In this document: one piece after another, positions 9,767-11,692 of the stretch
Layout: every line of letters begins with the position of its first letter
How positions within the stretch are numbered: position 1 is the first letter of the stretch
Assembly: GCA_946555455.1 (NCBI GenBank)
Contig: CAMNSU010000003.1
Location: 900-64,899, forward strand
Direction of reading: 5' to 3'
From: an uncultured Clostridia bacterium
GTDB lineage: Bacteria > Bacillota > Clostridia > RUG12999
Length of the DNA: 64,000 nt
The notes under the pieces: model-generated
What the model was told of the DNA's origin: nothing
Databases searched by the model: none
What the model saw: the letters and a program-made list of their open reading frames with translations, nothing else
Program-made: the position numbers and the translations under genes

Positions 9767-10612
9767 TTATTCAAACGTAACAGAGATGTCGCCCATGGCA
9801 GTTTTTGCGTGCAGCGTATGATTCCCGCCCTGTCTGTTTTGAATATTTTTGCTGCCCATATGTGTTTCCGCGTCAATGGTATAATCTAATTCGCTGCCGA
9901 GAATGACGCAGTCAATGTCGCCGCAGTTGTTGTCCAGCACGATATGCTTTCCTGCAATACGCTCCAGCTCGATATCGCCAAAATCACAGGAGACGGAAAT
10001 GTCGCCCGAAATATCTTTTGCTTCAATGTCGCCGCAGCTATTTGTGATTTGAAACATATCCGCAGAGGTTTGTTCCAGTTCGATATCGCCATAGTCAAGC
10101 TTACAGACGAGCGTGGAAAACGCGCAATGTTCCAGTTTCACATCGCCGCAATCCGCATTCAACTGCAAGGAGCCTTTTAAACCGGAGAGGGAAATATCGC
10201 CATAGTTACTGTCGAGGGTAATATCTGCGCTGAAATCCCGCGGAACCGTTACGGTGATTTGGCACGGACGACTGCCGAAATGAAAATCAATATAGTCGTA
10301 CCATTTCAGCCCCAACTGCCGGATAGGGACAGGCTCCAGAGACAAGGTATCGCTGTCTGCATGGAAACGATATTGGATTTTCTTTTCAGTGGTATATGTG
10401 ACGGTGATTTTGTCGGTATCTGCGGAAACAAAGCGTACGTCGCCCACCGAAGAAGAAATATTGATGTTTGAAACACTGCTGTCTGCGGTTTGCGTCTGTA
10501 CTACGCTGTTTTCCGGCGCGGCGGCGCCCATGAAAATGGCAAAGGCGGAAAGTCCGGCGCCGAACAGGACAAGCATTCCGGCAATCGTTAGGATTATTTT
10601 ATTGCATTTCAT
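9767..10612 (-). CDS. DUF4097 family putative adhesin / beta-propeller protein
   Basis: 281 aa with an N-terminal TM/signal. The C-terminal region shows repeated GD(I/V) beta-strand motifs (NYGDISL, DCGDVKL, DYGDIELE, SCGDIEAK, DFGDIELE, NCGDIDC). It is third in a PadR-DUF1700-DUF4097 operon. Confidence 0.8.
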   Translation of the reverse strand: MKCNKIILTIAGMLVLFGAGLSAFAIFMGAAAPENSVVQTQTADSSVSNINISSSVGDVRFVSADTDKITVTYTTEKKIQYRFHADSDTLSLEPVPIRQLGLKWYDYIDFHFGSRPCQITVTVPRDFSADITLDSNYGDISLSGLKGSLQLNADCGDVKLEHCAFSTLVCKLDYGDIELEQTSADMFQITNSCGDIEAKDISGDISVSCDFGDIELERIAGKHIVLDNNCGDIDCVILGSELDYTIDAETHMGSKNIQNRQGGNHTLHAKTAMGDISVTFE

Positions 10613-11207
10613 CTGAAGCGCCTCCTTGTTTCATGAAAAAATATTTGATTTTTCGGCAGATAAATCCGGTCAGACGCACAAGCTGTTTCGCGCAGTATGC
10701 GGACAAATAGAACAGGAATATTGCCGCGCCGCCGCTCACGAGCGCCATGCCAAACCACAGCATTGCTTTAAGCGCCGCTGCCGGCAGAAGAAAGGGAGAA
10801 GCAACGAGAAGCGTCACGCCGGACAACGCCAGCACCGCAGTGGTTGCAAACAGTGAAAAGACAATTGCCCATACCGATACATAGAGGGAGAACACCACCG
10901 CCGCAGCCGCAAGCAGCAGGGCAATCCAAACAGGCGAACCGAGCGCCAAAAGCGTTAGCGTAACCGCATTCCAATTGCGTTTTTTGATGTTTTCCAAGGT
11001 AAATTCCCGCGCGGGCGTGTCATGAATGATTTTTTCGGCAATATCGTCTATGCTGCCCAGATTTGCAATCACTGCTGCTTCTTCGCCGCCGTCCTCCACT
11101 GCGTCGTCAATGATTTCGGCGTAATAATCAATCGTTTTTTGTACTTCCTCACGTGGAAGCGTGGATAGAGCAGTTTGCAACTGGGTTAGAAATTCATGTT
11201 TCGTCAT
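10599..11207 (-). CDS. DUF1700 domain-containing membrane protein
   Basis: 202 aa. N-terminus MTKHEFLTQLQTALSTLPREEVQKTIDYYAEII matches the DUF1700 consensus. It has C-terminal TM helices and overlaps the neighbouring genes by 14 nt on each side. Confidence 0.8.
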   Translation of the reverse strand: MTKHEFLTQLQTALSTLPREEVQKTIDYYAEIIDDAVEDGGEEAAVIANLGSIDDIAEKIIHDTPAREFTLENIKKRNWNAVTLTLLALGSPVWIALLLAAAAVVFSLYVSVWAIVFSLFATTAVLALSGVTLLVASPFLLPAAALKAMLWFGMALVSGGAAIFLFYLSAYCAKQLVRLTGFICRKIKYFFMKQGGASDEMQ

Positions 11208-11517
11208 GGTGCGTTTCCTCCTTTATGAAATCATAGGCTTTCATAACGTCCTTCCAATCTTCCAAAAAGTCTAATATTTTTTCTTTGCCTGCCGCCGTGA
11301 TACGATAATATTTTCGCAGACGGCTGTTGTGCTCAACGGTGTATACCGTGATACAGCCGGAACTTTCCAAACGCTTTAAAATGGGATATAGCGTGGATTC
11401 GGAAATGGCAATATAGGGTGAGATATCCTTGATGATTTTATATCCATAGGAATCTTCTTGTTTAATAGCGGTCAATATGCAGATTTCAAGCAGTCCGCGC
11501 TTTAATTGTATATCCAT
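11194..11517 (-). CDS. PadR family transcriptional regulator
   Basis: Start at the ATG (MDIQLKRG) preceded by GGGAGG. The product is 108 aa with a PadR winged helix (GLLEICILTAI..EDSYGYKI..........ISESTLYPILKRLESSG). Confidence 0.85.
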   Translation of the reverse strand: MDIQLKRGLLEICILTAIKQEDSYGYKIIKDISPYIAISESTLYPILKRLESSGCITVYTVEHNSRLRKYYRITAAGKEKILDFLEDWKDVMKAYDFIKEETHHDET

Positions 11518-11633
11518 ACAGAAGCCTCCCTTCACATTATACCATGTCCGTAAAGCGGATCGGTATAATTTTGTGCATCTTCATCGTCCTGCGACTTTTG
11601 TGGTCGGCGAGACGAAGGTACTTTCGATTTATA

Positions 11634-11692
11634 ATATACTGCTTGACATATTATACTATATCACACATAGTATAATATGTCAAGCAGTATAT
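11634..11692. promoter_or_regulatory. 59-nt perfect palindrome (26-bp arms, 7-nt spacer) in the padR upstream region, a putative PadR operator/promoter
   Basis: ATATACTGCTTGACATATTATACTAT-ATCACAC-ATAGTATAATATGTCAAGCAGTATAT. Each arm contains TTGACA, and on the minus strand TTGACA-17-TATAGT. It lies about 120 nt upstream of the padR start. Confidence 0.5.

Follow-up and report, generated by a model that had tools for sequence, protein, structure and literature searches.

Operons that combine a PadR-type repressor with a DUF1700 (HAAS) membrane protein and a DUF4097 (Toastrack) protein have been studied in Listeria monocytogenes. There, the lltR (lmo0599)-lmo0600 (DUF1700)-lmo0601 (DUF4097) operon was derepressed 100–150-fold in an LltR helix-turn-helix mutant, and an lltR promoter-lacZ fusion was derepressed more than 50-fold; the operator sequence was not described (Hauf et al., 2019, PMC6624303). 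An operator is known for a related repressor, cdPadR1 of C. difficile (PDB 5DYM), which in vitro, in electrophoretic mobility shift assays, binds TACT(N11-12)AGTA with an A/T-rich spacer at its own promoter. A fuller form of this motif is GTACTAT(N2)ATTATA(N)AGTA; Box 3/4, AGAGTACTATGTATTATTATAGTAAAT, overlaps the −35 and −10 elements of cdPadR1 itself. The protein forms four to five shifted species on promoter fragments of 64–100 bp and is thought to oligomerise on DNA; the genes downstream of it were not described (Isom et al., 2016, PMC5050560). More recently, the HAAS-PadR dyad together with Toastrack was proposed as a signalling alternative to two-component systems in envelope stress (Ravi et al., 2024, PMC11237479). 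Here we analyse an operon of this composition and the long perfect palindrome in front of it, found in a 64,000-nucleotide stretch of an uncultured Clostridia bacterium (contig CAMNSU010000003.1; hereafter the window).

The three genes lie on the minus strand of the window, and Pfam matches confirmed the PadR-DUF1700-DUF4097 trio that a preliminary description had recognized from the sequence. That description regarded the trio as functionally unresolved. In view of the autorepression of lltR and the signalling described for HAAS-PadR and Toastrack, this holds only in part. By gene order and domains, the window operon resembles the Listeria one, with padR followed by DUF1700 (HAAS, multiple transmembrane segments) and DUF4097 (Toastrack), and autorepression is known in Listeria. 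It differs in that its promoter carries a 114-nt insertion and a palindrome with 27-nt arms, and in its host, an uncultured member of the Clostridia. It also resembles the HAAS-PadR dyad, since a HAAS membrane protein gene stands beside a standalone PadR winged helix-turn-helix gene, with Toastrack in the same operon. We consider it likely that this is an autorepressed PadR-s2/HAAS/Toastrack operon of the Listeria lltR type, and that its long palindrome is a local rearrangement in the lineage of the window.

The palindrome lies upstream of padR (Table 1). Its arms are 100% complementary and have a G+C content of 22%, and it is the longest perfect inverted repeat within the window. By a rough calculation, a perfect 27-nt inverted repeat is expected by chance about 1e-9 times in 64 kb. 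Folded as single-stranded DNA, the palindrome reached −25.1 kcal/mol, compared with −5.1 ± 1.7 kcal/mol for shuffled sequences (z = −11.6), and 0 of 200 shuffles matched it. The Logan assemblies L001 and L002, which are independent and together represent at least five samples, both carry the identical sequence, and an assembly artefact was therefore rejected as its source. The preliminary description had placed the repeat at 11634–11692 with arms of 26 bp; the perfect repeat with a 7-nt spacer stood, and the arms were extended to 27 nt each, over 11633–11693.

The palindrome appears to contain both the promoter of the operon and a conserved PadR operator. The minus-strand promoter matches the consensus at 11 of 12 positions. 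The predicted operator core is centred on the spacer of the palindrome and contains TACT-ATGTGTGATAT-AGTA (N11; 11654–11672). Of the two half-sites, ATTATACTAT on the left falls within the promoter spacer and ATAGTATAAT on the right overlaps the −10 element TATAGT, a geometry that would make it a classic promoter-occluding operator. At the level of sequence the core resembles the cdPadR1 site, as both contain a TACT-N11-AGTA inverted repeat overlapping the −35 and −10 elements of the regulator's own promoter. The spacer of the core is A/T-rich (8 of 11) like that of cdPadR1, although its centre, GTGTG, is less so. The window also has a single core, in contrast to the two separate boxes of cdPadR1, which lie about 27 bp from each other. 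Classical PadR/LmrR operators follow the pattern ATGT-N8-10-ACAT with half-sites of 4–7 bp. The window site shares with them the inverted repeat in the regulator's own promoter and the predicted use by a winged-helix dimer, and it differs from them in its half-sites, TACTAT and ATAGTA, and in its 27-bp arms. A search for further PadR boxes in the window found only this one perfect site; three matches with three mismatches were at chance level.

To assess the conservation of the core, 80 genomic loci were fetched whose PadR proteins are 58–85% identical to that of the window. In 70 of 83 loci, the 300 nt upstream of padR contained the motif ATACTAT-N7-ATAGTAT with at most three mismatches, mostly with no or one mismatch. 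Thus, an inverted repeat is indeed conserved upstream of orthologous operons, which the preliminary description had named as the test of its proposal. We then aligned 53 unique sites with at most one mismatch to the core, centred on the core (loci L005–L084). Positions ±4 to ±10 were conserved at about 94–100%, a figure that is partly built in by the selection of sites on the core. The consensus was aATACCTC-TTGACA-aata-ATACTAT-gcgtngT-ATAGTAT-tatgc-GAAAGGAGGTAT, also written aATACCTCTTGACAnataATACTATgcgtngTATAGTATtatgcGAAAGGAGGTAT. In this consensus the −35 hexamer occupies positions −20 to −15, and the −10 element TATAGT consists of the last spacer base and the right half-site. The operator centre is located 30–37 nt before the ATG in 38 of the 53 sites, so that the right flank is the Shine-Dalgarno sequence of padR. 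The related operators are quasi-palindromes: out of the 27 positions paired in the window palindrome, they have 16 (median) and at most 23 complementary ones, compared with 27 of 27 in the window itself, and their perfect arms have a median length of 7 nt and a maximum of 11 nt. One locus from the Bacilli, L028 (Peribacillus loiseleuriae), has the variant core ATGCTAT-N7-GTAGTAT.

The closest comparison came from syntenic loci, which were obtained by a search with the Toastrack protein (93, 84, 80 and 60% identical) and have the same neighbours on both sides. A metagenome scan with the Toastrack protein returned only one identical fragment; the close relatives came from the protein search and contigs. 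We aligned the intergenic regions of the window and six syntenic loci from four relative lineages (alignment A1). The relatives read ...CAATATACTGCTTGACAT-ATTATACTAT-GTGTGAT-ATAGTATAA(G/T)-G(C/T)GAAGGGAGGCTTCTGTATG, also given as ...TTGACATATTATACTATGTGTGATATAGTATAA(G/T)G(C/T)GAAGGGAGGCTTCTGTATG, and the 60%-identity lineage has TTGTG after ATAGTAT instead. In all four lineages the arms are 9–10 nt long and the Shine-Dalgarno sequence directly follows the operator, without the 114 nt. On either side of this insertion the window is identical to its relatives. The ribosome-binding site of padR is ancestral and unchanged, as the sequence GAAGGGAGGCTTCTGTATG is identical in all syntenic relatives.

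The insertion itself accounts for the length of the palindrome. Its first 17 nt (11649 to 11633), ATGTCAAGCAGTATATT, correspond without a mismatch to the reverse complement of the 17 nt before the left half-site, a stretch that includes the −35 element. Together with the pre-existing 10-nt half-sites, this inverted copy produces the 27-nt arms, and the outer 17 nt of each arm are, judged by the alignment, specific to the lineage of the window. The insert ends with GTATAAT, a duplicate of the last 7 nt of the half-site, and its boundaries are ambiguous by this 7-nt direct repeat. The short form is shared by all four relative lineages and by the wider family, which makes the long form the derived one. 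The operon DNA is 93% identical between the window and its 93% relatives, whose PadR (L086 and L088) is 100% identical to that of the window; the same repressor would therefore work with a short operator. The length of the repeat, which the preliminary description had stressed as exceptional, is real within the window, and it is not a property of the family, in which about 10 nt per arm are conserved.

Table 1. Positions of the operon, its promoter region and neighbouring elements in the window.
Feature	Position	Strand	Description
Perfect inverted repeat	11633–11693	both	arms 11633–11659 and 11667–11693, 27 nt each; 7-nt spacer; centre 11663
Operon promoter	11655–11683	minus	−35 TTGACA 11683–11678; 17-nt spacer; −10 TATAGT 11660–11655; TG before −10
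Mirror promoter-like site	11643–11671	plus	TTGACA 11643–11648; 17 nt; CATAGT; from the inverted duplication
Predicted PadR operator core	11650–11676	minus	ATTATACTAT-GTGTGAT-ATAGTATAAT; identical in syntenic relatives
Lineage-specific 114-nt insertion	11649 down to 11536	minus	between right half-site ATAGTATAAT and Shine-Dalgarno sequence; from alignment A1
Extended −10-like sequence	11544–11536	minus	TGGTATAAT; at 3′ insertion junction
padR Shine-Dalgarno sequence	11525–11530	minus	GGGAGG; 7 nt before ATG; read from the sequence
padR	11517–11194	minus	107 aa, read from the ATG that all homologues align to; small PadR-s2-type winged-helix repressor
HAAS/DUF1700 membrane protein gene	11207–10599	minus	202 aa; Pfam HAAS 6e-13
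Toastrack/DUF4097 gene	10612–9767	minus	281 aa; Pfam DUF4097 (PF13349) 1.5e-23, model positions 2–246 of 247
Long hairpin	11709–11794	both	14-bp stem AAAACGGATAAAAG/CTTTTATCCGTTTT; 58-nt structured loop; T-runs on both sides
Cu_amine_oxidN1-like upstream gene	11926–13449	minus	
Second perfect palindrome	55662–55700		19-nt arms, 1-nt spacer; TTTAATCCTTATTGATATA-T-TATATCAATAAGGATTAAA
Fur/PerR-like regulator gene	55709–56110		
Rubrerythrin-like gene	56141–56677		

An inverted copy of an arm flank at a quasi-palindrome has the signature of a template switch during replication, and we infer this mechanism from the sequence. Mutations in which a template switch at a quasi-palindrome extends the identity of its arms form an established class (PMC7202029, PMC3820800). 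As in these cases, in the window a flank was copied in inverted orientation and an imperfect repeat became perfect, with the 10-nt arms providing the pairing. In contrast to the classical events, which are small in-register corrections, the window shows a 17-nt extension and a net insertion of 114 nt including 97 unrelated nt, so that it takes at least two switches or a different process to explain it. We found no source of these 97 nt in the window, in about 90 related loci (BLAST), or in PLSDB plasmids or viral contigs. Nor did they resemble the ancestral promoter, as Smith-Waterman scores in both orientations were below the shuffle mean. On this ground we rejected the idea that the proximal ATTATACC...GGTATAAT, beside the Shine-Dalgarno sequence, is a decayed second operator or a tandem duplication; its GTATAAT is simply what remains of the end of the original half-site. 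The extra 97 nt and the 7-nt repeat at the junction point to a multi-step switch with microhomology or to the capture of other DNA. In a different explanation, the 114 nt would have arrived as a captured piece of foreign DNA or as a small mobile element of the non-autonomous kind, with GTATAAT as a 7-bp target-site duplication, and the palindrome would be accidental, the end of the element happening to resemble the −35 flank. The direct repeat flanking the insert, the ATGTC...GACAT shared by the insert ends and the lack of a detectable source for the 97 nt are consistent with such an element. Nevertheless, we consider it very unlikely, since searches of the window and of about 90 related loci gave no second copy and the terminal inverted repeat measures only 5 nt. 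Moreover, local copying explains the 17/17 match between the insert end and the reverse complement of the neighbouring flank far better than coincidence does.

Outside the core, two elements are conserved in the 53 promoters: ATACCTC (−27 to −21), just upstream of the −35 element, and GAGGTAT (+21 to +27), at the ribosome-binding site. They are mirror images at the level of the consensus, and in single sequences their complementarity equals the expectation from column composition. The same was found for complementarity at positions ±11 to ±40 of the 53 operators, which gives no support to a family-wide selected hairpin, cruciform or anti-Shine-Dalgarno pairing. In 11 loci the operator is displaced to 60–160 nt from the ATG by independent, non-homologous inserts (lineages L007, L019, L028, L030, L035, L041, L043, L057, L059/L060 and L072). 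In these ten other lineages the inserts of about 40–130 nt lie between operator and padR, with a new Shine-Dalgarno sequence at the ATG and the old GAGGTAT kept beside the operator. The right element has a mean of 5.45 of 7 matches in the 11 displaced loci, compared with a background of 1.8. No conserved small open reading frame was shared by the lineages with displaced operators. It appears that the gap between operator and padR is a recurrent insertion point, or that the old GAGGTAT element has a second function. A kept right element could reflect a wider protein footprint, which by analogy would fit the multiple shifted complexes of cdPadR1. The nearest relatives of the window have GAGGCTT in place of GAGGTAT, and the right element is thus not strictly required.

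These flanks bear on the possibility of an extended or dual operator, as the preliminary description had suggested, in which the outer arms would serve as PadR contacts and two or more dimers or an oligomer would cover about 60 bp, from upstream of the −35 element to +12. If so, the perfect palindrome would strengthen or alter repression in the lineage of the window. The multiple shifted species and presumed oligomerisation of cdPadR1 on DNA would agree with this (PMC5050560), as would a second TACT/AGTA in each arm, 17 nt outside the core copy, and the conserved ATACCTC and GAGGTAT, the latter kept in the 11 loci where it is no longer the ribosome-binding site of padR. However, in the syntenic relatives, among which two loci encode an identical PadR, the right side reads GAGGCTT and the arms are only 9–10 nt, so that the protein does not require the longer operator. 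A distance of 45 nt separates the outer TACT from the outer AGTA, and relative to the inner copies the outer ones are direct rather than inverted repeats; neither this spacing nor this arrangement corresponds to a known PadR dimer site. The two outer elements also show no covariation. In the orthologues, the right element may be explained as a Shine-Dalgarno sequence, and where it was kept it could be a 5′ Shine-Dalgarno-like stabiliser of the mRNA. On balance, we regard an extended operator as unlikely.

The preliminary description had alternatively proposed a cruciform-forming element. As a switch, negative supercoiling would extrude the palindrome, which would hide the −35 and −10 elements and destroy the duplex operator, making expression sensitive to supercoiling. 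The perfect 27-nt arms, the low G+C content, the short 7-nt loop and the stability of the single-stranded hairpin described above are all favourable to extrusion. Reportedly, Horwitz and Loeb found in 1988 that promoters embedded in palindromes can be controlled by cruciform formation in engineered E. coli constructs. On the other hand, the long arms are present in one lineage only, and the complementarity of the 53 operators outside the core, being what column composition predicts, speaks against selection for pairing. Having arisen through an insertion, the palindrome looks like a mutational by-product, and extrusion in vivo is kinetically limited. We therefore find a cruciform switch highly improbable.

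The inverted duplication also created a promoter-like site on the plus strand. The preliminary description had seen symmetric TTGACA-17-TATAGT promoters. A TTGACA does lie in each arm and the operon promoter is inside the palindrome; the plus strand has CATAGT without a TG, and the asymmetry of the 7-nt spacer keeps the two promoters from being fully symmetric. The mirror site is directed at the long hairpin between the upstream gene and the padR promoter (Table 1), which likely is a bidirectional terminator that terminates the upstream gene. Its stem and T-run are conserved in relatives (L086–L093), with the loops replaced. A bidirectional promoter under PadR control would accordingly produce a plus-strand RNA of about 125 nt that ends at this terminator and runs antisense to the transcript of the upstream gene at its 3′ end. 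The mirror site matches the consensus at 10 of 12 positions, the plus-strand RNA downstream of it would form a strong hairpin followed by the U-run UUUUCAUUUUUU (z = −3.55), and the operator core would repress both directions. Yet the −10 element has a C at position 1 and lacks the TG extension, the site is absent from all relatives, so that any RNA would be a new by-product, and there is neither an open reading frame nor an Rfam family match. A functional bidirectional promoter thus seems quite unlikely. In a combined form of these ideas, the 61-bp AT-rich palindrome with the operon −35/−10, the mirrored antisense-RNA promoter and the central PadR operator would be an accidental two-faced, supercoiling-sensitive promoter, in which cruciform extrusion and PadR binding compete and set the expression of an envelope-stress operon. 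We hold this to be just as remote as the cruciform switch itself. In a weaker version, the true family operator would be about 55 bp long, including the outer ATAC/GTAT, and PadR-HAAS repressor oligomers would extend from the −35 element to the ribosome-binding site.

We therefore return to autorepression from the short core. In this model, the near-consensus sigma-A promoter (TTGACA, 17 nt, TG-n-TATAGT) carries the family operator inside it, and a PadR dimer on the TACT-N11-AGTA core would obstruct RNA polymerase. PadR would be released by a signal from the membrane or envelope that HAAS senses, possibly together with a membrane-anchored Toastrack. The 114-nt insertion directly after the right half-site would have stretched the arms from 10 to 27 nt through the 17-nt inverted copy, presumably by a template switch at the quasi-palindrome within a more complex event that added 97 further nt. 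The rearrangement left the promoter, the operator core and the Shine-Dalgarno sequence intact, so that regulation has probably been maintained. It lengthened the leader from about 15–20 nt in the short form to about 130 nt; the leader's RNA fold is unremarkable (z = −2.2), and an Rfam search of leader and palindrome gave only sub-threshold look-alikes of miRNA hairpins and no family match. The potential side effects of the rearrangement, i.e. the mirrored weaker promoter, the cruciform potential and the extended −10 TGGTATAAT, are not conserved. The last of these, which the 3′ junction of the insertion created just before the padR Shine-Dalgarno sequence, has no recognisable −35 element and could be a weak second promoter independent of PadR. 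Taken together, the promoter rearrangement is derived and probably neutral or mildly modifying, and the length of the palindrome would reflect neither a family-wide dual operator nor a conserved structural element.

Several points weigh against this model. ATACCTC and GAGGTAT are retained even where the operator is displaced, so the functional operator may exceed the core, in which case the mirrored outer arm, GCAGTAT with 5 of 7 matches, might be relevant. An uptake of 97 unrelated nt is not expected from the simple correction of a quasi-palindrome, which leaves the route only partly explained, and the flanking GTATAAT repeat could be the target-site duplication of a small element. Finally, because the orthologues were gathered by PadR similarity, the conservation figures hold for that subfamily only.

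The system in itself is another PadR-HAAS-Toastrack operon with the expected self-repression site and matters little. More useful may be the promoter-operator blueprint, well defined and strongly conserved, of the subfamily in Clostridia, AATACCTC-TTGACA-N4-ATACTAT-N7-ATAGTAT-N~10-GGAGGTAT-ATG, which ties uncharacterised operons from gut and rumen to the binding motif of cdPadR1. It can serve as a probe with which to predict regulons and to study HAAS-PadR signalling by mobility shift or reporter assays. In addition, the window and its relatives form a natural before/after pair, with an identical repressor and a promoter with or without the 27-nt-arm palindrome and the 114-nt leader. This pair is suited to studying what longer operator arms, the potential to form a cruciform and the length of the leader do to a repressible promoter; it also exemplifies a rearrangement of the template-switch type fixed in a wild population.

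Next, we compared the encoded proteins with the described families. The padR product matched Pfam PF03551 (PadR) at 3.3e-19, with 69 bits against a cut-off of 27, over profile positions 1–73 of 75. Near full-length matches to PadR-s2 entries of the PDB were obtained for 3l7w (8e-20), LmrR, 3f8b (4e-12), bcPadR1, 4esb (1.5e-11), and cdPadR1, 5dym (5e-11). By sequence, the window PadR fits the PadR-s2 subfamily, with a winged helix-turn-helix and a small size, like LmrR, bcPadR1 and cdPadR1. The HAAS domain is N-terminal (residues 5–58), and a hydropathy scan placed hydrophobic segments at about 98–172, the region being hydrophobic from about 88 by eye; on hydropathy, the HAAS domain is thus fused to a transmembrane module. 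The GxP kink that characterises the third helix of HAAS in the described dyad is G-S-I here (residues 51–53), a position placed by alignment and approximate. Among 76 related loci, P occurs at this position in 6 only and most have G-x-V/I, with the G kept.

The Toastrack protein contains nine GD[IV] motifs and one transmembrane-like segment (residues 6–24, hydropathy). Its AlphaFold2 model (mean predicted local distance difference test score, pLDDT, 88.6) consists of a helix at residues 2–30 and is all-beta afterwards. The best Foldseek matches were the DUF4097-type 'putative adhesin' structures 4qrk (3.9e-9), 3pet and 3ljy, with TM-scores to the model of only 0.34–0.5. The model points to the beta-helix-like repeat fold expected of Toastrack/DUF4097. 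The helix is preceded by MKCNK and followed by no positive charges, and by hydropathy and the positive-inside rule this suggests an N-terminus inside and a Toastrack domain outside the cell. Ravi et al. (PMC11237479), in contrast, propose Toastrack to be an intracellular sub-membrane platform.

The geometry for translational coupling was as the preliminary description had stated: the genes overlap by 14 nt at both junctions, and each downstream start codon (HAAS and Toastrack) has its own AGGAGG 8–9 nt before it. The four syntenic relatives have the same gene coordinates and hence the same overlaps. A HAAS homologue follows padR in 77 of 80 related loci, and a match to the Toastrack hidden Markov model lies 3′ of padR in 73 of 80 (4 of the remaining 7 loci are truncated), which makes the trio a conserved module. 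A contig labelled Prolixibacteraceae (Bacteroidota; L011, CAXXYG010000014.1) encodes a PadR 72% identical to that of the window with the same operator, which may reflect mis-binning or horizontal transfer.

Elsewhere in the window, a second perfect palindrome is located just upstream of a gene for a Fur/PerR-like regulator, which is followed by a rubrerythrin-like gene (Table 1). This palindrome is probably the regulator's own operator.

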